From a virus (taxonomy: Duplodnaviria; Heunggongvirae; Uroviricota; Caudoviricetes): 14,968 bases of DNA. Shown piece by piece: positions 3,060 to 14,968 of the stretch. The notes under the pieces were generated by a model. The model was not told the origin of the DNA. It ran no database searches and was given only the letters and a program-made list of their open reading frames with translations. How positions within the stretch are numbered: the first letter of the stretch is position 1; each line of letters opens with the position of its first letter. The stretch lies in the IMG/VR virus record IMGVR_UViG_2529292834_000017. One strand, given 5' to 3'. A program made the translations under genes and the position numbers.

Positions 3060-3893
3060 ATGAACATCGAAAAAAGCAGATTAATTTCTGAGGCCGCCCC
3101 TCATCTGAACGCCTCTCTGGGCACAATTAACGGTAATGAATTTGCCGCAATTGTCCCGGTTATTTCTGGTCATATAGGCGGGCGTGAAACCAATATTGTT
3201 AGCGCAAAAGCGTTACACAAAGCGTTGGGCGTGGGAAAAGACTTCTCTACATGGATCACTGATCGCATCTCTGAATATGACTTCACCATTGGGCACGATT
3301 ACTCAGTCCATAAAACAATTTCCCCAAATTTGGGGAAAAGCCCGAATGACGCGGCTTACAGCAAGATTAAGCAGTCTGGCAGACCCGGCAAAGACTATCT
3401 GTTAAGTGTCGGAATGGCGAAAGAACTGGCAATGATCGAACGCAATGATCAGGGTCGCGCTATCCGCCGTTATTTCATCCAGTGCGAGAAAGAATTACAG
3501 CGTAGCGTGCCTGAAATCGCCGCCCGCTATCGTCGCCAGCTAAAAGCCCGTATCAGTGCCGCAAACAACTTCAAGCCAATGTGCGATGCGCTGAATATGG
3601 CCCGTGCCGAGATGGGGAAAACGACGCAGCAACACCACTACACAAACGAGAGCAATATGATTTCTCGTATCGTTCTTGGTGGGCTAACTGCTAAGCAGTG
3701 GGCGCGGATAAATGGCTATTCTGGCGAACCTCGCGACCATATGAACGCAGAACAGCTTGAGCACCTCTCATATCTCGAAAGCACCAATATCACGTTAATT
3801 GATATGGGCATGGAATATGAGCAGCGCAAAGGAGAACTCACCCGCCTGTCGCAACGCTGGCTCGCCAAGCGTCTGGAGGCGGTCCATGTTTAA
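3060..3893 (+). CDS. Phage antirepressor-like protein (AntA/AntB-type N-terminal domain)
   Basis: 277-aa ORF with SD ACGGAG upstream. N-terminal segment IVSAKALHKALGVGKDFSTWITDRISEYDFTIGHDY fits the AntA-type pattern (A..LH..LGV...FS.WI..RI..Y.F.EG.D) as I remember it. Product call is moderate; coding call is good. Confidence 0.75.
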   Translation: MNIEKSRLISEAAPHLNASLGTINGNEFAAIVPVISGHIGGRETNIVSAKALHKALGVGKDFSTWITDRISEYDFTIGHDYSVHKTISPNLGKSPNDAAYSKIKQSGRPGKDYLLSVGMAKELAMIERNDQGRAIRRYFIQCEKELQRSVPEIAARYRRQLKARISAANNFKPMCDALNMARAEMGKTTQQHHYTNESNMISRIVLGGLTAKQWARINGYSGEPRDHMNAEQLEHLSYLESTNITLIDMGMEYEQRKGELTRLSQRWLAKRLEAVHV

Positions 3894-4068
3894 GCCGACA
3901 GGAACACCACAACCTCAAAAACGCTACAAAGATGCCCACGGAGCACTCGTTACTGTCGAAAGCGTGTCTCACAACCGAGTGACGTTTTATCGCGACGGGT
4001 ATCAATCGCCATGCGTACAACCGCTGGCACGTTTCATGAAGGAGTTCGCGGAGGTTAACAAATGCTAA
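3886..4068 (+). CDS. Small hypothetical protein (60 aa), coupled to upstream gene
   Basis: ATG at 3886 overlaps the stop of the upstream gene (ATGTTTAA), the same overlap style as the other junctions in this operon. Protein [60 protein letters not shown]. The ORF track extends to 3799 but that would overlap the upstream gene by 95 nt. Confidence 0.5.
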   Translation: MFKPTGTPQPQKRYKDAHGALVTVESVSHNRVTFYRDGYQSPCVQPLARFMKEFAEVNKC

Positions 4069-5129
4069 CCGCCCAGAAGAAGATATTTTCACTGGCTGGT
4101 ATGTCGCCAAAATCCAGCAATATGACAGCAAAGTCAGACATTAATACAGCAGATACAAGCAAAGTTTATCATTTGCTGGTGGTAGGAGCGGATGCCTTAA
4201 CTATGTCAGAAATTACGGTCGATGGTGTTAGCGTTGAGAAGGTCAGCGGCTATGCCAGAGAATTTCTGGTCGTAGATGGCTTTCTCTGCTCGTGTAGTGA
4301 CTCCACAAAAACCTTCGTCCACGCGCGTGACGTTAACGAAATGAGCGCGATGTACTGTGCTTCTGGTTCTTCCAATAGTGAGTTTTCGGAGTCCATAAAA
4401 AAGAGCTTGCCGTTATGCGGCAACACGGTTTATGGTTATAAGGCACCTCATAAAACGGGTGCCGGGATTGGCGTCCTAAAAATTCTGAAGGCGACATATG
4501 ACGCGCCAAGCGTCTTTTTTTATGTCGTAGGTCTGACTCACCCATTTTTTGGGCGTTGGTGTATAATCCAGCGCCTTTGTCAATCAATGGTGGCTCAGGC
4601 GGGGGCTTCTTCGGAAGCGCCGGTATCCTTCAGAGCCGGTTACGCCAACCCTGTCTGGGCTACCACCAGCGAAATTGGCGTTTCCGGTGGTAGCGTAACC
4701 TGCTATCTGAAGGAGGCTGCCACATGCTGGCTACTACCCCTACCCAAAAAACGCAATTTATCTGGATTATCGCCGCAGTTCGCCGCGATTGCCCGACAAT
4801 TACCGCCAAAATTCATCATATTGCTGCCGAGTCTGAACGCGATGCTCGCCGTTCTCTGGTGCGCGATCACGTCTGCTTTTTTGCTGGTCGTATCCGCATG
4901 GAGGTGGCACATGATTAAAACCTACGATGTGCATATGGATCCCCTCGAACGCACAAGCCAGATCATCACACTGACAGAAGTGATTAACGACATTCTGGTG
5001 AGCAACTCTCCCTCACGAGACGAAAGACTGAAGGCGTTACTCGCGATATTGGATCTCGCCGTTCGTGACGTTCATTTCCTGCTGGAAGGTGGCGAAATGC
5101 CAGTAAAAACGGGGGCAACCAATGAATAA
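4062..5129 (+). CDS. Questionable 355-aa ORF, probably not one gene
   Basis: The first ~145 codons (4062 to ~4500) look protein-like. The ORF then reads through a hairpin+U7 terminator (4500-4521), a perfect TATAAT (4562-4567), a UUCG-tetraloop hairpin and a 9-bp hairpin, and the SD/ATG of a better ORF in another frame (4724). Its last 72 codons coincide with the separate gene 4911-5129. An annotation pipeline could still call it as one hypothetical protein. Confidence 0.3.
4381..4403 (+). promoter_or_regulatory. Copy 1 of conserved promoter-proximal motif AGTTTT-N2-GAGTCCATAAAAAA (putative early-operon promoter element)
   Basis: GAGTCCATAAAAAA at 4389-4402 is identical to 10237-10250 (14/14), with matching AGTTTT upstream in both. 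Followed by a perfect palindrome TTGCCG-N5-CGGCAA (4406-4422) and, about 100 nt downstream, a hairpin terminator. Confidence 0.35.
4500..4521 (+). terminator. Intrinsic terminator-like hairpin in the immunity leader (timm-like)
   Basis: GACGC-GCCAA-GCGTC stem-loop followed by TTTTTTT. Immediately preceded by TCTGAAGG (4484-4491), a seqA-like target complementary to 4628-4635. Confidence 0.45.
4530..4567 (+). promoter_or_regulatory. Sigma70-type promoter with perfect -10 TATAAT (4562-4567), weak -35
   Basis: TGTATAAT at 4560-4567. No good -35 hexamer at 17 bp, so activity is uncertain. Confidence 0.35.
4568..4700 (+). ncRNA. Candidate P4 CI / P1 C4-type antisense immunity RNA region (boundaries approximate)
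   Basis: Non-coding leader with a GCTTC-TTCG-GAAGC tetraloop hairpin (4605-4618) and a 9-bp perfect stem GCTACCACC/GGTGGTAGC (4659-4667 with 4686-4694). TCCTTCAGA at 4627-4635 is perfectly complementary to TCTGAAGGA at 4706-4714, which overlaps the SD (AGGAGG 4711-4716) of the Icd-like gene, and 8/8 complementary to 4484-4491. Family membership would need a covariance-model search. Confidence 0.4.
4724..4918 (+). CDS. Icd/Kil-like small protein (cell-division-inhibitor family of P1 icd / P4 kil position)
   Basis: 64-aa ORF with SD AAGGAGG (4706-4712). Motif [10 protein letters not shown]...[25 protein letters not shown] resembles Icd-like proteins as I remember them. Its stop overlaps the next ATG (ATGATTAA). 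Sits immediately downstream of the antisense-RNA-like leader, as in P1 immI and P4 immunity regions. Confidence 0.55.
   Translation: MLATTPTQKTQFIWIIAAVRRDCPTITAKIHHIAAESERDARRSLVRDHVCFFAGRIRMEVAHD
4911..5129 (+). CDS. Small hypothetical protein (72 aa), translationally coupled
   Basis: ATG at 4911 preceded by GGAGGTG; overlaps the upstream stop and the downstream start (ATGAATAA at 5122). Protein [32 protein letters not shown]... Confidence 0.5.
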   Translation: MIKTYDVHMDPLERTSQIITLTEVINDILVSNSPSRDERLKALLAILDLAVRDVHFLLEGGEMPVKTGATNE

Positions 5130-6401: not shown

Positions 6402-8753
6402 ATGCGAAACATTGATCTTATCCGTCAGGTTATCAGTGCGTCTGAAAACAACTGGCCTCATGTGCTGGACTGCCTGAACATAAATGTCCCTGACTCTCCG
6501 CGCCGTCATGCTCCCTGCCCTGCATGTGGGGGCAAAGATCGATTCCGGTTCGATGACAACGGGCGCGGTAGCTTCATCTGTAATCAGTGCGGCGCTGGTG
6601 ATGGGCTGGATTTAATTAAACGCGTAAATAACTGCGACACAACAGAGGCGGCGCTTCTTGCCGCTGATGTTCTGGGTATTGATTACCGGACAACGGAAAC
6701 ACCAGAAGCCACCAGCCAGAAACGGGAACAACTGGAAACCGAGCGCCAGCGACGCGAACAGGAGCGCCTGAAAAGGGCAGAGAAGGACGAACAACAAAGA
6801 CGGGATACGTTTTCCCGTCAGTTTGATGACATGCGCAGAAAGGCTGTAAACGGCAAATCTGATTATCTGGTTGCGAAAGGGGTAGGTGATTTTACATTCC
6901 CTGTGTTGCCCGATGGATCTCTGTTGCTGGCGCTGGTGGATAAATCCGGCGCAGTCACAGCAGCACAGACTATTACCTCACATGGTGAAAAAAGACTCCT
7001 GACAGGTTCAGCAAAGCGAGGGGCATATCACGCCATAAACGCACAGAAACGACCTCACAGCATCATAATTGCTGAGGGGGTGGCTACCGCCCTGTCGTGC
7101 CATTTAATTCGCCCTGACGCAATGACAGTGGCAGCAATCGACGCTGGCAACCTGTTGCCAGTAGCGGAAGTCATGCGCAGAACATATCCACAGGCACAAA
7201 TCATCATTGCCGCAGATAACGATCACCAGCAAGGAAACTCCGAAAGTGGAGGGATCAACACGGGGAAAGATGCCGCAGAGAGGGCCGCTATTTCCGTAGC
7301 TGGCTGGGTGTCTCTGCCACCGACTGACTATAAAGCCGACTGGAACGACTATCACCAACAACACGGGCTGGCGGCAGCCACAGCAGCATTTAAAGATTCG
7401 ATGTACCAGCCACGGGGGAAAGGGGCGCAGGTGAAAAATCACAAACAGTCAGTCGGGGCGCTGAATGAGATCAGTTCTGGCGAGGTGTTAAGCGATGATG
7501 AAATTGCTGTCCTCGAAGAAATCAACCGGACGTTTACGCATGTCACCATCGGCGGGAAACACAAGGTGGTGTCGCTAAAGCCTTCTCAAACCGGCGGTGT
7601 ATCGCACGTTTTCGAGGATTTATCACAATTTCAGCATTATTTTCATCATAAACCGAGAGTCGCCAGAAAGCTGGCGGGATCGGCGTGGCTGTCATGGAGT
7701 GGGAAGAACTACAAGCCAGGAGGCGTAGGATTTTATCCAGTACCAGACAAATGCCCTGACGATGTTTTTAATCTGTATGAGGGGCTGGCACTGGAACCAA
7801 TTGAAGGAGATTGCACGGTATACCTTAATCACCTGTTGCAGGTTGTCTGTGCCGGTAATGAAGAGGCATACCAATATCTTATCCAGTGGATGGCGCACAT
7901 TATCCAAAAGCCTGATGAAAAACCGTCCGTGGCAATCGTGATGAAATCTGTCCCGGGCACAGGGAAAGGCACAACGGTTAAACCGCTGCTGCAAATACTG
8001 GGGCAGTACGCCGCCCACATTAACGGGGCGGGACATATTTCAGGGCGCTTCAATTCAATACTTGCTAACAAGCTACTGGTATTTGCTGACGAAGTGACGA
8101 TCCACAAGCCGTCTGAAGCTGACAGACTTAAAGCGATTATTAGCGAACCGACGTTTAACCTTGAGCGCAAGGGAATTGATGCTGAACCAATGCCGAATTT
8201 TGCCCGGTTGATATTTGCCAGTAACAGCACACAGGTATTACAGGCAGGGATAAGAGAGCGCCGCTATCTCGTGCTTGAGCCATCTCCTGAAAAAGCACAG
8301 AGCCGGGAGTATTTTGATCGGCTGTACAGTTGGCTTAATGATGGCGGTGCCGCAAAGTTGCTTTGGCATCTTAAAGGGGTGGATCTCTCAGGTTTTGACC
8401 CTCAACGAGCGCCACAGACCGATGCCTTACGTGAAGAAATCTTGCTGGGGCTGTCTGGCGTTGAATTGTTTCTTTATGGCGAGCTAATCAATGAACCTCC
8501 GTTTAATGGCGAAGTCCGTTTGTTTGCAAAGGATATGGTTAGTCGATTTGTAGCGTGGTCGCTTGAGCGTGGGGAAAAGCTTAAAGAACCAGCTGCCAGA
8601 TCACTACTGGGTAAATCACTTGCACAAATGGGGCTGGTGAAGCATGGAAGACCAGACCGAGGGAATGGCGTGTTCTACGAACTACCAGAGGTCGGAGTTC
8701 TACAGGCTGCGTTTGCCCGTCTGATCGGTATGGGGGGGTATGATGTTTTTTAA
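6402..8753 (+). CDS. P4 alpha-type bifunctional DNA primase / SF3-like helicase (zinc ribbon + Toprim + D5/P4-family NTPase)
   Basis: 783-aa ORF with SD GGGGGC. N-terminal zinc ribbon CPACGGKDRFRFDDNGRGSFICNQCGAGDGLDLI (CxxC...CxxC), near-diagnostic of P4-alpha-like primases. Toprim-like IIIAEGVATAL and AADNDHQ (DxD). P-loop-like SVPGTGKGTT, Walker B-like LLVFADEV, sensor-like LIFASNS. Size matches P4 alpha (777 aa). Confidence 0.93.
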   Translation: MRNIDLIRQVISASENNWPHVLDCLNINVPDSPRRHAPCPACGGKDRFRFDDNGRGSFICNQCGAGDGLDLIKRVNNCDTTEAALLAADVLGIDYRTTETPEATSQKREQLETERQRREQERLKRAEKDEQQRRDTFSRQFDDMRRKAVNGKSDYLVAKGVGDFTFPVLPDGSLLLALVDKSGAVTAAQTITSHGEKRLLTGSAKRGAYHAINAQKRPHSIIIAEGVATALSCHLIRPDAMTVAAIDAGNLLPVAEVMRRTYPQAQIIIAADNDHQQGNSESGGINTGKDAAERAAISVAGWVSLPPTDYKADWNDYHQQHGLAAATAAFKDSMYQPRGKGAQVKNHKQSVGALNEISSGEVLSDDEIAVLEEINRTFTHVTIGGKHKVVSLKPSQTGGVSHVFEDLSQFQHYFHHKPRVARKLAGSAWLSWSGKNYKPGGVGFYPVPDKCPDDVFNLYEGLALEPIEGDCTVYLNHLLQVVCAGNEEAYQYLIQWMAHIIQKPDEKPSVAIVMKSVPGTGKGTTVKPLLQILGQYAAHINGAGHISGRFNSILANKLLVFADEVTIHKPSEADRLKAIISEPTFNLERKGIDAEPMPNFARLIFASNSTQVLQAGIRERRYLVLEPSPEKAQSREYFDRLYSWLNDGGAAKLLWHLKGVDLSGFDPQRAPQTDALREEILLGLSGVELFLYGELINEPPFNGEVRLFAKDMVSRFVAWSLERGEKLKEPAARSLLGKSLAQMGLVKHGRPDRGNGVFYELPEVGVLQAAFARLIGMGGYDVF

Positions 8754-8782: not shown

Positions 8783-8795
8783 ACCTGTACCACCT
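8783..8795 (-). repeat. Single iteron-like copy (reverse complement AGGTGGTACAGGT) 30 bp after the primase stop
   Basis: ACCTGTACCACCT on the + strand matches 13/14 of the GGTGGTACAGGTGG repeat clustered at 9809-9911. Confidence 0.45.
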
Positions 8796-8844
8796 ATACC
8801 ATTAACAAACGCATTTCTTCTGGCTGGCTGAGAGGGAACAACCA

Positions 8845-9802: not shown

Positions 9803-9808
9803 ATAAAT

Positions 9809-9911
9809 GGTACAGGTCTGTACAGGTGGGGAGAGGTCATTTTTACCCACCTGTACCACCTGCAGGCCGCGCCACACAAGGGTTTGTGACATGGTGGTAC
9901 AGGTGGTACAG
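9809..9911. repeat. Iteron cluster: at least 3 copies of GGTGGTACAGGTGG in both orientations, including an 11-bp perfect inverted repeat; candidate replication origin / crr-like site
   Basis: GGTACAGGT at 9809-9817; GTACAGGTGGG at 9820-9830 is perfectly inverted to CCCACCTGTAC at 9846-9856 (15-nt spacer); GGTGGTACAGGTGGTACAG at 9893-9911. Non-coding position downstream of the primase-helicase. The origin role is inference by analogy to P4 alpha binding iterons in ori/crr. Confidence 0.5.
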
Positions 9912-10405: not shown

Positions 10406-10579
10406 ATGGCTATTTCAGTAAAGCCAGTATTGATAAGTGAGAAGCAAATGGAAGCGATAAAGAAAATTCAGGAGGAGCAGCGTAAAAAATCAGAGGTAGG
10501 AGTTGCGCCAACGATCCACGAAATTGCTCGGGGATTAATGGATAAGGCGCTGGCTTACACTTTAACTGGACGTGGGTAA
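10406..10579 (+). CDS. Small hypothetical protein (57 aa), first gene of the cargo operon
   Basis: Strong SD AAGGGGGG 6 nt before the ATG at 10406. Protein MAISVKPVLISEKQMEAIKKIQEEQRKKSEVGVAPTIHEIARGLMDKALAYTLTGRG, charged and helical-looking. Possible small regulator or partner protein; inference only. Confidence 0.6.
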   Translation: MAISVKPVLISEKQMEAIKKIQEEQRKKSEVGVAPTIHEIARGLMDKALAYTLTGRG

Positions 10580-10583
10580 ATTT

Positions 10584-11927
10584 ATGGCTACGTGGCAACA
10601 GGGTATTAATTCTGGTGGTTTTCTGGCTGGCATCGGTGCGCAAAATGAGAATGCGCCAAAGGCAAGCGACATTAACGCAACGCTTGGTCTGATCCGCGAA
10701 AACAATGAACTGGCTCGCTCAGGTGCAAATAACGTTGCTCTGACAGGTCTTCGTGGTCTGGCTGGAGTTGCTGACATTTATAAGCAGCAGCAACAGCAGG
10801 AACGTAAAGCGGCATTCCAGAAAGGTTATGCAGATGCTTATGCGTCCGGTGACAGGGAGCAGATGCGTAATCTTATTACAGCATTCCCAGAAGAGTTTGA
10901 GGAAGTCCGTAAAGGGATGAGTTATGTCGATGATGCTCAAAGGGATGATTATGGCAATCTGGCGCTCAAAGCACAGGTAGCCTCATCGCTTGGTCAGGGC
11001 GCATTTGGCAGGTTCATGATGGATAATGAGCAGGAGATGCGTCGTTTAGGTATCCCTCCAGAAACTATTGCTGAAATGCAGGTTAATGACCCGCAGGGCT
11101 TCCAGCATTTCGCAGGTAATCTGGCGCTGTTTTCTCTCGGTCATGAGAAGTATTTCGATATCAAAGATCAAATGGAAGGTCGTCGACTTGAGCAAGGGCG
11201 ACTGGATGAAAGTATGCGTCAGGCTGACATGGAGAACGCGAGAGGATGGGCAAATATCCAGAACGCTCAACTAGACAGGGCTCAGCGAGCACAAATTCAC
11301 TCAGATGAGATGGGATTGAAGCTAATGGAGCTGGGGCAAAAAGGTAAGCCGTCAGCAGACTTAATTAAGGGATTAAATTCTGACATTACCAATTTTGGCA
11401 AAAATTATAACTCTGTCAGAGCGGCGGCAAACTCTCTGCAAGCCCTTAGCAAGGTAAATACTGGCGCTGCCCAACTTGGGATTATCTTCAACTACATGAA
11501 ATCTCTTGACCCGCAGTCAGTCGTTCGTGAAGGCGAACAGGTTCAGGTAATGCGGTCTGATGGCATATGGGGACAAATCAAAGGATACATAGACCAGCTT
11601 AATGCTGGAAACGGCCTGTCGCAGGAGGCAAAGGATAACATTGTTAACGCCGCAAAAATCAACGCCAATGCTATGGGGCAGCAGTTTAACCAGCAGGTTG
11701 ACGAGTATCTCGATACATATGGAGAAACTATTCCTCAGGGGCTAAGAAAAAGCCTTGAAAGAAGGAAAGCGAAGCTATTTGACGATGTTTCCGGGCAGCC
11801 TACATCACAGGCTGGCACTGGACAGGCAAAAGCGGCAACCGGAGGAATATCAGAAGGCGCAACGGCAACCAACCCTAAAACTGGTCAGAAAATCATTTAC
11901 AGGAACGGAAAATGGCAGCAAATGTAA
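10584..11927 (+). CDS. Hypothetical coiled-coil-rich protein (~448 aa; 451 aa if GTG 10572 is used) with Gly-rich N-terminus
   Basis: Long ORF with coding-like composition. N-terminal Gly/Ala/Asn-rich segment (GINSGGFLAGIGAQNENAPK), then a Q/E/R-rich probable coiled coil (QADMENARGWANIQNAQLDRAQRAQIH). No Walker, nuclease or other catalytic motif seen. Start ambiguous between GTG 10572 (overlapping the upstream stop) and ATG 10584. Confidence 0.8.
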   Translation: MATWQQGINSGGFLAGIGAQNENAPKASDINATLGLIRENNELARSGANNVALTGLRGLAGVADIYKQQQQQERKAAFQKGYADAYASGDREQMRNLITAFPEEFEEVRKGMSYVDDAQRDDYGNLALKAQVASSLGQGAFGRFMMDNEQEMRRLGIPPETIAEMQVNDPQGFQHFAGNLALFSLGHEKYFDIKDQMEGRRLEQGRLDESMRQADMENARGWANIQNAQLDRAQRAQIHSDEMGLKLMELGQKGKPSADLIKGLNSDITNFGKNYNSVRAAANSLQALSKVNTGAAQLGIIFNYMKSLDPQSVVREGEQVQVMRSDGIWGQIKGYIDQLNAGNGLSQEAKDNIVNAAKINANAMGQQFNQQVDEYLDTYGETIPQGLRKSLERRKAKLFDDVSGQPTSQAGTGQAKAATGGISEGATATNPKTGQKIIYRNGKWQQM

Positions 11928-14029
11928 TCTTACCGGAAGGTTTTGTGCTCGATGAACAACCTGATAACTCACAGTTTCCTGATAGTTCACAGCTTCCTGA
12001 TGGTTTTGTGCTTGATGCCCAACCAGAACAGCAGCAATCACCTTTGGTTTCACCAGAGGAAAATTCCAGACAGGAAAATGTTGTTAATAATGCTAACGGT
12101 TTCGACCGTTTTATGTATGGCGTTCTCAGTGGATTGATGGATGTTGGTAAAGGTGTTGGCCTGTTTCAGGATATGACACCAGAAGAGCAAGCCGCAATTC
12201 AGTCTCTACAGCAGAAGTTAGCGGCAAAACCATCAACCGCACAAGATGTTGGTGAGTTCGTTGGACAAGCAGCGCCATTTGTTAGTGGTGGTGGGATTAT
12301 TTCTCAGGTTCCCAAAGGGGCGGCAAGACTGGCTGCCGCCGCAGGGCTTGGTGCTGGAGAAGGGGCTATTGTAGCCAATGGAACAAATAGCGATGTTGCT
12401 TCCGGCGCTGCTATTGGCGCTGTGGCTGGCCCTGTAGCCGAACTTGCTGGCCCTGCAATTAATAAAATAGCTGGGAAATTAACCAAGAAGAATGTTTCTT
12501 CGATTCCAGATATTGAGGGGATTACTCCTGCCGAAGAGAAAATTCGTAAGTTATCTGCACAAGGCAACCCAAATCTTGCCTCTTCGCTTGAAGGGCTAGA
12601 TCTAAAACCTCAGAAAGAAATTGTTGAGGCTGCAAATAGGCTTCATGTTGATTCAGTTCTTCCTTCTCATTTATCAGGAAATGAGCAATACCAAGCTGTA
12701 GAGCAAGCCCTAAAGTCACGGACAGGATCAGCGTTAAAAGCTCAAGAAGATAAAGCAATAAGCGAATTAGCCTCTAGTGCTGGCAAGATAATCGATGATG
12801 TTGCTGGTGCGCCAGATGCGTTAGCTATGAGCGAAAAATATATTTATCAGATAAATAGTAGAATGGAAGCACTAAAAAACCGTAGTGATCAGTTATATAA
12901 ACGTGTTGATTCCGCTCTATCACCAAGAACAAAAGTCGAAGCAAATAACACAAGCACTATGCTGGAAAAAATCGCTGATGATTTAGGAGGGTGGGATAAT
13001 CTTGACCCAATAGAAAAGCGAGTTTTTACAGCAATAAACCCCGGCCCAGATAGCATCCTAACGTATGCAAATTTAAACAGGCAAAGGCGTTTAGTTGGTG
13101 ATGCCCTAAATAAAAAGCAGGGGCCATACAAAGATGCTGATAAAGAAGCGCTATCAAGACTATATGGAGCTTTAGCTGAAGACCAAAAATCTGTCTTATC
13201 CAATACTGGATACTTGCGAGATTTCGAAGTCGCACAACGCCTTGTAGCTATGAGAAAAAACTTAGAAAGGCAAATGGTAAATCTTCGCGGGAAAACACTT
13301 AATGGGGATATAGCGTATAAAGTAACGAATTCTCTTCAATCTATGGCAAAAGGTGATGCGAGAGGGTTTCGTGAGATTATGCAAAATACTCCATCAAGAA
13401 CATTGCGAAGGGAGCTAGTAGGAACAGCATTAAGAGATATGCTTTCCTCTGGGAAGCGTGGGGCCGACTTTAATCCATCTGGCTTCGCAGATTGGTGGCA
13501 AAACTTGCAACACAGTGGACAGCTAAAGACTTTGGCTGAACATTTGCCAAAAGAAACAATGAGCGGACTATATGATGTATACAAAGTTGCCAGAGCAATA
13601 AAAAATGCTAAAGCGCATGAAATATCTACTGGTAAGCTGAATGAGTTTGTAAACAGATTTAATCGGGTAACAGCTCCATACGAACTAGCAGCAAAACACA
13701 TTCAAAAAATAGGCACGATGGTAGGCGCTCATTTTGGATCGCTTGGAGCCATTGCTGGGGCTGATATTGGAGCAAGATTGGCGAGTAAAGCTCGATTAGC
13801 TGGTGGAGCAGGGGCGGCTGATGCTGCGGATAAATTAATTGCCTCGCCAGCCTTCCAGAGCGCAGTAAAAAATCTACACGGAAAAGCGCCTGGGCACATT
13901 GTTGATTCACGTATCAGGCGCTCCCCTCAATGGAAGAGTTTTTTTAACTCTCTTCCTGAACAGGAAAAACGGACCATCGCCAGACTGGGCATCATTACTT
14001 GGCTATCTAATGATCCAGATAATGACTAG
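11912..14029 (+). CDS. Hypothetical 705-aa protein with N-terminal tandem repeat and Gly/Ala-rich amphipathic segments
   Basis: ATG at 11912 with AGGAA 6 nt upstream; overlaps the end of the upstream gene by 16 nt. N-terminus has a tandem repeat LPEGFVLDEQP / LPDGFVLDAQP. Gly/Ala-rich stretches at residues ~125-180 (AARLAAAAGLGAGEGAIVANG...AIGAVAGPVAELAGPAINKIAGKL) and near the C-terminus (GSLGAIAGADIGARLASKARLAGGAGAADAADKLIASPA). No enzymatic motif recognised. GC content drops sharply after ~12500. Confidence 0.85.
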   Translation: MAANVILPEGFVLDEQPDNSQFPDSSQLPDGFVLDAQPEQQQSPLVSPEENSRQENVVNNANGFDRFMYGVLSGLMDVGKGVGLFQDMTPEEQAAIQSLQQKLAAKPSTAQDVGEFVGQAAPFVSGGGIISQVPKGAARLAAAAGLGAGEGAIVANGTNSDVASGAAIGAVAGPVAELAGPAINKIAGKLTKKNVSSIPDIEGITPAEEKIRKLSAQGNPNLASSLEGLDLKPQKEIVEAANRLHVDSVLPSHLSGNEQYQAVEQALKSRTGSALKAQEDKAISELASSAGKIIDDVAGAPDALAMSEKYIYQINSRMEALKNRSDQLYKRVDSALSPRTKVEANNTSTMLEKIADDLGGWDNLDPIEKRVFTAINPGPDSILTYANLNRQRRLVGDALNKKQGPYKDADKEALSRLYGALAEDQKSVLSNTGYLRDFEVAQRLVAMRKNLERQMVNLRGKTLNGDIAYKVTNSLQSMAKGDARGFREIMQNTPSRTLRRELVGTALRDMLSSGKRGADFNPSGFADWWQNLQHSGQLKTLAEHLPKETMSGLYDVYKVARAIKNAKAHEISTGKLNEFVNRFNRVTAPYELAAKHIQKIGTMVGAHFGSLGAIAGADIGARLASKARLAGGAGAADAADKLIASPAFQSAVKNLHGKAPGHIVDSRIRRSPQWKSFFNSLPEQEKRTIARLGIITWLSNDPDND

Positions 14030-14048: not shown

Positions 14049-14474
14049 TCAATCTTTATTCTTTGAAATAGAGTCATTGATCTTTTCGAAACACCAATGA
14101 AATCCACAAAAGAGAGCTACACCAATATAACAATACAAAACTATCAACCACCTTTCAGTGTCCGAAGGGTAAAAAACATCAATTACATAAGCAACACCAA
14201 TTGGTATTAATGCTAGTAATAACATCGACACAGGACGTACAAACTTCTGAACTATATCAATTTTATAGAACCACAAGGCGGTATGTTTAATGATATAAGT
14301 AAAGATGGCTGCGCCAATAATGGCAAAAAACACCATCGATAAAGTCGGGTATAACTTTGCGACAATTAAACCCAACAAAATAATTATAACTGCCTGCCCC
14401 CTCACACCAACCCTCCCTTTAGCTTTGTTTAGAATGGCAATCATCATATATCCAAGACATGGCATTTGGTACAT
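14049..14474 (-). CDS. Small integral membrane protein (141 aa, ~4 predicted TM helices), low GC
   Basis: Minus-strand ORF convergent with the 705-aa gene. Hydrophobic stretches VIIILLGLIVAKLYPTLSMVFFAIIGAAIFTYII, VSMLLLALIPIGVAYVIDVF and LIVLYCYIGVALFCGF. Very AT-rich codon usage. No clear SD at any of the candidate starts (14474, 14465, 14447). Confidence 0.65.
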   Translation of the reverse strand: MYQMPCLGYMMIAILNKAKGRVGVRGQAVIIILLGLIVAKLYPTLSMVFFAIIGAAIFTYIIKHTALWFYKIDIVQKFVRPVSMLLLALIPIGVAYVIDVFYPSDTERWLIVLYCYIGVALFCGFHWCFEKINDSISKNKD

Positions 14475-14598
14475 AGCTTGGGTCGGGATTTCAAATCCGC
14501 TCCCCGTTGATGGGGCCGTTACAGTACGCGCATATCCGCTTTATGTGAAACAGGAAGATTTTTCTGATATCACTGCCACAGCAAAACACCAATTTCGT

Positions 14599-14668
14599 GA
14601 CCAGTACGCGCGCGAGGTGTATCAGTTGCAAAATTTTTTGCAGCTGTGTCCGACCAGTACGCACGCGA
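14599..14668. repeat. Two 17-bp direct repeats GACCAGTACGC(G/A)CGCGA flanking a 24-bp AT-centred palindrome
   Basis: GACCAGTACGCGCGCGA at 14599-14615 and GACCAGTACGCACGCGA at 14652-14668 (16/17). Between them CAGTTGCAAAA-TT-TTTTGCAGCTG (14623-14646), 11-bp arms with 1 mismatch. A partial third copy CAGTACGCGCA is at 14522-14532. Confidence 0.5.
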
Positions 14669-14721
14669 TGGCGGGGAGCACCATAAAACTGTTCTCTACA
14701 TAAGACAGAGTGGTGGTGATG

Positions 14722-14968
<247 letters not shown>

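Follow-up and report, generated by a model that had tools for sequence, protein, structure and literature searches.

What is the function of two short direct repeats placed symmetrically around an AT-centred palindrome close to the right end of a stretch of phage-like DNA, just inside its junction with an insertion sequence? The structure lies in a stretch of 14,968 nucleotides (IMG/VR record IMGVR_UViG_2529292834_000017, hereafter 'the window', meaning the whole of the DNA that we analysed). The original prediction offered three readings of this architecture – an operator, a site for transfer or packaging, or a core flanked by arm sites for a recombinase – and suggested that it may mark the original right end of the island, later abutted by the IS element.

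The window is an EcCIMP1-type island of Escherichia coli

By gene content and DNA homology, the window is an EcCIMP1-type phage-inducible chromosomal island (PICI) of E. coli. It displays the int, alpA, primase, P22-like ejection genes and perC layout of these elements as well as DNA homology to EcCIMP1; perC itself is located outside the window, beyond the IS. The main genes are as follows.

1–1269, tyrosine integrase, with an arm-binding domain
2398–2616, AlpA-type regulator
3060–3893, AntA antirepressor
4062–5129, Ash-family protein
6402–8753, primase-helicase (DUF5906)
10572–14029, homologues of the P22 ejection proteins gp20 and gp16
14049–14474, minus strand, predicted membrane protein of 141 aa, at the site of sieA in P22

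EcCIMP1 excises only upon induction of the P22-like phage vB_EcoP_Kapi1, its proven helper, which transduces the island specifically and at a very low level (Pick, Stadel & Raivio 2025, PMC11773190). The island encodes no terminase or capsid-redirection genes, and the authors of this study, the only experimental one on the island family, could not determine how it is packaged; the island confers immunity to Kapi1 superinfection, with no known defence system found, and does not reduce the Kapi1 titre on induction (PMC11773190). A satellite that is packaged specifically by a P22-like phage without a terminase of its own needs a site in cis that the small terminase (TerS) of the helper accepts.

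Islands of this type are common. The 291 bp around the repeats were found in 535 of 5,426 complete E. coli genomes, every time on the chromosome: the single match labelled as a plasmid is a 4.9-Mb record, and thus a chromosome. In the enterotoxigenic (ETEC) strain H10407 and the enteroaggregative (EAEC) strain 042, the islands are about 20 kb long and run rightwards to a perC-family gene and past it. The capsid-less satellite nonetheless keeps the ejection-protein homologues gp20 and gp16, and within this region a 1.27-kb segment (approximately 11166–12432) is 89% identical to Kapi1 DNA. The 141-aa membrane protein has a weak Bax1-I match in Pfam; we considered it as a homologue of P22 SieA and rejected this, as the two share a position and no similarity. 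EcCIMP1 has a different gene at this position. In some island variants, the membrane protein could account for the superinfection immunity that has been reported.

The repeats belong to a same-strand array interrupted by IS100kyp

The elements around the palindrome, in the order in which they occur in the window, are listed below.

14513–14534, plus strand, degenerate motif copy A, GCCGTTACAGTACGCGCATATC, with the core CAGTACGCGC at 14522–14531
14593–14614, plus strand, motif copy B, TTTCGTGACCAGTACGCGCGCG
14599–14615, direct repeat 1, GACCAGTACGCGCGCGA, within copy B
14623–14646, AT-centred palindrome, CAGTTGCAAAA tt TTTTGCAGCTG, separating copies B and C
14646–14667, plus strand, motif copy C, GTGTCCGACCAGTACGCACGCG
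14652–14668, direct repeat 2, GACCAGTACGCACGCGA, within copy C
14732–14968, end of the IS21-family element IS100kyp, istB side, with the breakpoint taken from alignment to intact islands

The individual elements that had been described in the window are all present. The two 17-bp repeats are identical at 16 of 17 positions and spaced by 53 bp; the 24-bp near-perfect palindrome between them has arms (14623–14633 and 14636–14646) that are complementary at 10 of 11 positions around a 2-nt centre; and the partial third repeat upstream corresponds to the core of copy A, which is unchanged in 11 variants of the surrounding sequence. We estimated chance levels by resampling the window 500 times with a first-order model. 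By chance, a window should contain 0.02 pairs of 17-mer direct repeats that differ at no more than one position and lie within 100 nt (7 of the 500 resamples had such a pair), and the repeats are thus not due to chance. For palindromes of equal quality, by contrast, the chance level is 0.65 per window, with 205 of the 500 resamples containing one, so that the palindrome alone is not remarkable; the window has three. Its core, GTTGCAAAA / TTTTGCAAC, is perfect in most relatives, with variation at the centre and the outer positions. It has no counterpart in the Kapi1 and P22 genomes, and the strength of the potential hairpin or cruciform is not exceptional (fold z-score of -0.75).

The IS21 junction is located as predicted: the window matches uninterrupted islands up to position 14731, the IS starts 63 bp right of the second repeat, and the remaining 14732–14968 are 100% identical to annotated IS100kyp istB ends on many plasmids. 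In intact islands, a further copy of the motif (copy D, GACAAGTACGCGCGCGT) follows on the same strand 233 bp right of the second repeat. The IS100kyp insertion therefore falls between the third (C) and the fourth (D) copies, cutting the module, which is why copy D is missing from the window. A fifth copy (E) is found about 1.4–1.75 kb further right, after perC, in both H10407 and EcCIMP1; EcCIMP1 itself thus carries copies A, B, C and D plus copy E. Overall, the array comprises at least four same-strand copies, with the fifth further right.

The proposal that the structure marks the original right end of the island, with the IS abutting it, does not survive comparison with intact islands, which run 3.4–3.8 kb past the repeats; the IS landed inside the array. 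In 042, we identified att repeats at 2347–2370 and 22252–22275 of the island record (L002), and the repeats at 18160–18229, in a conserved block spanning 18031–18470, are 3.8 kb inside the element; in EcCIMP1, the ends of which have been sequenced, they are 3.4 kb inside. Neither are the repeats part of the IS or of a general intergenic repeat family: they lie outside the IS, occur only in this island family, and the block that contains them is free of the IS in the relatives that we examined and is present in about 520 genomes in total.

The array is embedded in a conserved, portable non-coding block

14480–14731, plus strand, conserved module, its left approximately 250 bp; the full block of about 430 bp corresponds to 18041–18470 of the H10407 record (L001)

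The full block is present at 95–100% identity in 523 of 5426 complete E. coli genomes (about 10%), and the similarity ends just past copy D. It is kept with differing neighbours on either side. In EcCIMP1, the left neighbour is an unrelated gene in the opposite orientation to the membrane gene, and the block can therefore not be explained as a mere promoter for the membrane protein. Among natural variants there are indels of 53, 11, 2 and 1 bp, arguing against a coding function, and the ORFs that overlap the block belong to no PHROG or Pfam family. The GC content of the block is 0.45–0.50.

The segment from copy B through the palindrome to copy C is the most variable part of the block. In strain 18SZHZ655Rt (L003 9165–9190), an exact recombination between the two repeats has produced the 53-bp deletion, leaving a single hybrid repeat copy and no palindrome. 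Two further small palindromes, GGATTTCAAATCC (14486–14498) and CCCCGTTGATGGGG (14502–14515), are located at the left edge of the block, and this stretch is one of its few strain-variable spots.

Searches for known functional elements were negative. Rfam returned nothing at E≤1 for either the window or the intact block, and we detected no terminator-like or sigma-70-like promoter sites in the block. A tRNA or att remnant near 14480–14500 was considered and dropped, as ARAGORN finds nothing there. The block has no DNA homology to phages at E≤1e-5; a 65-nt query around position 14554 matched phage DNA by chance in Streptococcus phages only, and the B–C pair, searched against one genome per species, gave chance matches only, in GC-rich taxa. 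Across the collections searched, the B–C structure is confined to E. coli islands.

The motif matches the small-terminase gene of the helper phage

We built a 22-nt consensus, TTTCGNGACMAGTACGCGCRCG, from the island copies alone, and then scanned it over the Kapi1 genome. The best match, 20 of 22 positions at 18875, is inside terS (18704–19132), a gene that makes up 1.1% of the genome; the next-best score in the 39-kb genome is 16 of 22. First-order resampling of the Kapi1 genome, repeated 300 times, gave no score above 18, and in the genome of P22, which has another TerS type, the consensus reaches 16 at most. Local alignment of the block to terS gave a score of 33, reached at copy D with 19 identities and a single gap in 20 columns, as compared to 20.3 ± 2.3 under the null, where the highest of 500 scores was 29 (z of about 5). 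The terS match arose by exploration, and the probabilities quoted are thus optimistic.

The matched codons, D57 to A63 of Kapi1 terS, read GAT TTT CGC GAC AAG TAC GCG. In the terS frame, all island copies spell a form of F-x-D-(Q/K)-Y-A-(R/H), the conserved motif of the Pfam family Sf6_terminase, to which Kapi1 TerS belongs. Copy B matches Kapi1 terS (TTTCGCGACAAGTACGCG) at 16 of 18 positions, and the likeness continues upstream across a one-codon gap (GCAAAACACCAA / GCAAAGCATGAGGAT), so that about 33 nt in all are terS-like; the four upstream codons read A-K-H-Q, as compared to A-K-H-E-D in terS. With this extended likeness, copy B seems to descend from a genuine piece of terS. When translated as a whole, the block shows no detectable similarity to TerS or Sf6_terminase.

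Approximately 25 of the 76 non-island viral-contig matches to the motif fall in TerS-like ORFs of 130–210 aa, which carry the pattern ..FRWL....F.DQYARAREaQAD... The 17-nt pattern also matches a stretch coding for DPDKYAHVW in viral contigs (including L008, L010, L011 and L013), in ORFs of about 270–460 aa, mostly 410–440, with the look of large-terminase genes; codon usage thus makes short, GC-rich motifs such as this one recur in coding DNA.

Synonymous-site conservation across the 80 Sf6-type terS genes that we compared (L091–L170) is uninformative, as these represent only two haplotypes. The two haplotypes have many synonymous differences over codons 6–59 and are almost identical from codon 60. 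The mosaic boundary, at about codon 59, falls inside the motif copied by the island repeats: motif codons 57–63 are located where the variable N-terminal module of terS gives way to the constant part. The pac site of Sf6 is reportedly located in the part of gene 1 that encodes the DNA-binding domain. The motif would then sit at the 3' edge of this part, which we count among the weak points of a packaging interpretation.

A P22-type terS fragment and a pac-like core are also present

The island carries material from a second small-terminase family.

4210–4316, minus strand, P22-type small-terminase gene fragment of 107 nt, corresponding to nt 268–374 of gene 3
14554–14575, plus strand, P22-pac-like site, GAAGATTTTTCTGATATCACTG, with an exact match to the core AAGRTTTWTCTG at 14555–14566

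Read from 4316 to 4210, the fragment is 85% identical to P22 gene 3, and it is present at 85–87% identity in the window, H10407, 042 and EcCIMP1. The pac site of P22 is a 22-bp asymmetric site in gene 3, that is in terS (Wu, Sampson & Casjens 2002, annotated in NC_002371), and nt 268, at which the fragment starts, is the first base of the annotated site. The fragment matches 115 phage records; among the 25 matches listed, the boundaries are essentially the same and nearly all fall under a terS annotation. The 22-mer of the fragment that corresponds to pac, GAAGGTTTTTGTGGAGTCACTA, most resembles that of E. coli phage Louie (17 of 22). The fragment may constitute a second packaging signal. It lies, in antisense orientation, within an N-terminal extension of the 'ash family' ORF, the start of which may be over-called, the Ash domain beginning only at about nt 4431.

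The site at 14554–14575, located between copies A and B and invariant across all block variants, matches P22 pac at 16 of 22 positions and the Louie variant at 17 of 22, and agrees with 16 of the 17 positions of the published pseudo-pac pattern. When we searched the window, allowing one mismatch, with the core AAGRTTTWTCTG, written from the P22 and Louie variants, the sole other match was in the gene-3 fragment (4304–4315); such matches are expected 0.33 times per window, and 7 of 200 shuffles contained at least two. This is weak evidence for a P22-type pac site, and the element could just as well be a degenerate copy of the Sf6-type motif, namely of its 5' half (K-Q-E-D-F-S-D vs K-H-E-D-F-R-D).

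Homology between P22 gp3 and Kapi1 TerS would have made P22 pac and the island motif positional homologues. We rejected it: BLASTP finds nothing and the Pfam families differ (GP3_package vs Sf6_terminase), and the common E-D-(L/F) start is a visual resemblance only. We likewise discarded 12-mer matches of the block upstream of P22-type terminase genes, which occur by chance in unrelated contexts.

The repeats as putative packaging signals

We propose that the repeats are captured and amplified mimics of terS-derived pac sites, a putative signal for packaging of the island into helper capsids; given the evidence on both sides, we consider the chances of this being correct to be about even. P22-like phages keep pac within terS, and the best match of the motif in the helper genome is inside this gene. 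The proposal follows from the combination of a conserved, non-coding, co-oriented multi-copy array derived from the terS of the helper with a pac-bearing piece of another TerS family. A broader version, in which satellites lacking a terminase collect pac-bearing terS pieces of two unrelated TerS families (P22 gp3 and Sf6 gp1) and amplify the core into a non-coding cassette of several copies that include allelic variants, we put forward more tentatively, as a possibility that is rather doubtful at present. If true, it would allow one satellite to be packaged by P22-like helpers of different specificities, or to titrate their terminases.

Several observations count against the packaging reading. 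The 3' CGCG that is common to the island copies is absent in Kapi1 terS; this extension is present in other alleles of the Sf6-type terS family. TerS–pac binding in such phages is weak and hard to show in vitro. Finally, the very low transduction of EcCIMP1 by Kapi1 is odd for an element with five pac sites.

Alternative readings of the repeats

The alternative that fares best, though we regard it as unlikely, is that the repeats and the palindrome form an operator or enhancer-like binding array for a transcription regulator, or for some other DNA-binding protein encoded by the island or the helper, controlling the membrane gene in the sieA position, alpA_1 or perC. Operators typically show direct repeats plus palindromes, the block is located directly upstream of the minus-strand membrane gene in both the window and H10407, the two additional small palindromes at 14486–14515 would be in keeping with such an array, and the island encodes several HTH proteins. 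However, the block is retained in EcCIMP1, where an unrelated co-directional gene replaces the membrane gene, and lacks a sigma-70-like promoter; the copies keep no constant offset to gene starts, with D abutting a 3' end and E following perC; and the motif is absent from the promoter regions of alpA and int, and from Kapi1 with the exception of terS. Regulation would also leave the terS match unaccounted for.

That match would be explained without any present function if the copies were inert, decayed fragments of terS, picked up from helpers and then duplicated, a reading to which we assign a low probability. The 33 nt of terS-like sequence with a one-codon gap in copy B and the terS frame kept in all copies are compatible with such debris; the P22 gene-3 fragment demonstrates that the island picks up terS pieces, and the most variable segment, from B through the palindrome to C, tolerates a 53-bp deletion. 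What decaying genes would not be expected to yield is a core of about 12–22 nt kept in five places amid unrelated flanks, and translation of the block gives no Sf6_terminase signal. Furthermore, a block that is 95–100% conserved over about 500 genomes and moves as a unit between gene contexts does not behave as debris.

We consider it very unlikely that the block is transcribed leftwards to give an RNA with antisense seeds against helper terS mRNA, tuning or blocking packaging. Such an RNA would be complementary to terS codons 57–63 over 14–19 nt several times over, it could arise by read-through from the minus-strand neighbour genes, and it would offer an account of the immunity to Kapi1 superinfection that EcCIMP1 confers without a known defence system. 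Yet we found no promoter, terminator or Rfam family on either strand of the block, pairing would suffer from the variable position at the motif centre, and no reduction of the Kapi1 titre on induction was reported (PMC11773190).

Direct repeats around an AT-rich centre also resemble the origins of PICIs and plasmids, and the island has a primase-helicase. In PICIs and SaPIs, iterons flank an AT-rich region 3' of pri-rep, a layout that is alike; position and the absence of co-variation with the primase set the island repeats apart, and that they are replication-origin iterons flanking an AT-rich unwinding element is, in our view, highly implausible. The AGTACGCGCG repeats do not differ between the two island types and are separated from the primase gene by about 6 kb, and the block, with its GC content close to one half, is not AT-rich. 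Better candidates adjoin the primase gene and change with the primase type: islands with the DUF5906 primase carry direct and inverted CCTGTACCACC repeats (8783–8801 in the window, directly 3' of the gene, and, 1 kb beyond, 9808–9911), and those with the DUF927 primase carry, in the same place, GTTGGTTCA repeats around an AT-rich spacer (L002 12202–12314). These primase-adjacent repeats are probably the replication origin of the island. In H10407, the primase gene is followed by a further 85-bp repeat unit, which is missing from the window. Upstream of perC (L001 19348–19382), H10407 also has two TGTTGGTTCAAWAT repeats similar to the origin-type iterons GTTGGTTCA; these resemble the DUF927-type iterons, though the island has a DUF5906 primase.

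Least tenable, to the point of being negligible, is the reading as arm-type integrase or excisionase sites that mark where the island once ended on the right (attR). The layout, with a symmetric element between the repeats, does resemble arms around a core, and the integrase has an arm-binding domain. Arm-type sites would be expected in both arms, within about 200 bp of the att core, but the vicinity of int and attL contains no copies, and the true attR, 3.4–3.8 kb further on in 042 and EcCIMP1, has none at the usual distance of arm sites; the palindrome shares nothing with the reported EcCIMP1 att core (TCCTATTATC) or the 042 att repeats, and the IS inserted into the array rather than abutting it. 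Of the options originally offered, the evidence thus favours a packaging site and leaves the arm sites unsupported.

Discussion

Taking the repeats as captured pac mimics, we envisage the following scenario. The satellite would have acquired short pieces of terS by recombination with its helpers and then amplified the core. Oligomers of helper TerS would bind the motif copies and recruit the large terminase, TerL, and headful packaging would be initiated by the helper TerS on the replicated DNA of the satellite. Packaging would run rightwards on the plus strand, that is, in the sense direction of terS. Copies B and C, in phase at 53 bp or about five helical turns, may form a bipartite site around the palindrome; that this site is presented on one face of the helix is speculation, and a natural variant without the palindrome exists. 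In a variant of this scenario, the motif array could serve as a TerS decoy and contribute to the reported superinfection immunity.

How does the candidate compare with known packaging sites? Similarly to the motif, which matches the middle of terS of a P22-like helper, P22 pac is a short asymmetric recognition sequence within terS, and a true homologue of the pac-bearing segment of the P22 gene is also present in the island. However, P22 has a single site in coding DNA, whereas the island has four to five copies in non-coding satellite DNA. The two also relate to different terminases, TerS of P22 belonging to GP3_package and the terS matched by the island motif to Sf6_terminase.

The arrangement, rather than the sequence, is reminiscent of two other phages. 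In SPP1 (pacL/pacC/pacR), repeated boxes flank the cleavage zone and are proposed to wrap the TerS ring, and the pac site of phage P1 contains hexamer repeats. The island likewise has direct repeats on either side of a central element (copies B and C, 53 bp apart, around the AT-rich palindrome). It bears no sequence relation to SPP1 or P1, and at least one natural variant of the block can dispense with the palindrome.

Satellites that exploit the terminase of their helper are well known in cos systems. The cos site of P4 is that of P2, and SaPIbov5 carries cos. The common principle is that an element without full packaging machinery uses a site in cis that the helper terminase recognises; the difference is that these satellites need either cos sites or a protein of their own (TerS or Rpp). 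The E. coli PICI EcCICFT073, for example, has its own cos and Rpp (cited in PMC11773190). The island candidate, in contrast, is of the pac type, multi-copy and terS-derived, combines pieces of two TerS families and comes without a satellite terminase gene. While satellites that carry a helper cos or redirect the helper terminase by a protein of their own are thus already known, an amplified terS-derived pac-type cassette in a PICI of P22-like phages is not described in the literature that we searched.

EcCIMP1-like islands are carried by roughly a tenth of complete E. coli genomes, including the ETEC and EAEC reference strains, and encode virulence regulators such as PerC. A candidate region in cis of about 430 bp with a 22-nt motif makes the question of how EcCIMP1 is packaged directly testable. 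Should the packaging reading be wrong, the block would be a strongly conserved, portable non-coding element in need of another explanation. If it is true, the motif would pinpoint the recognition sequence of Sf6-type small terminases, which has been hard to define biochemically, and capture and amplification of terS fragments would constitute a route by which satellites can gain or widen their helper range without encoding a packaging protein.
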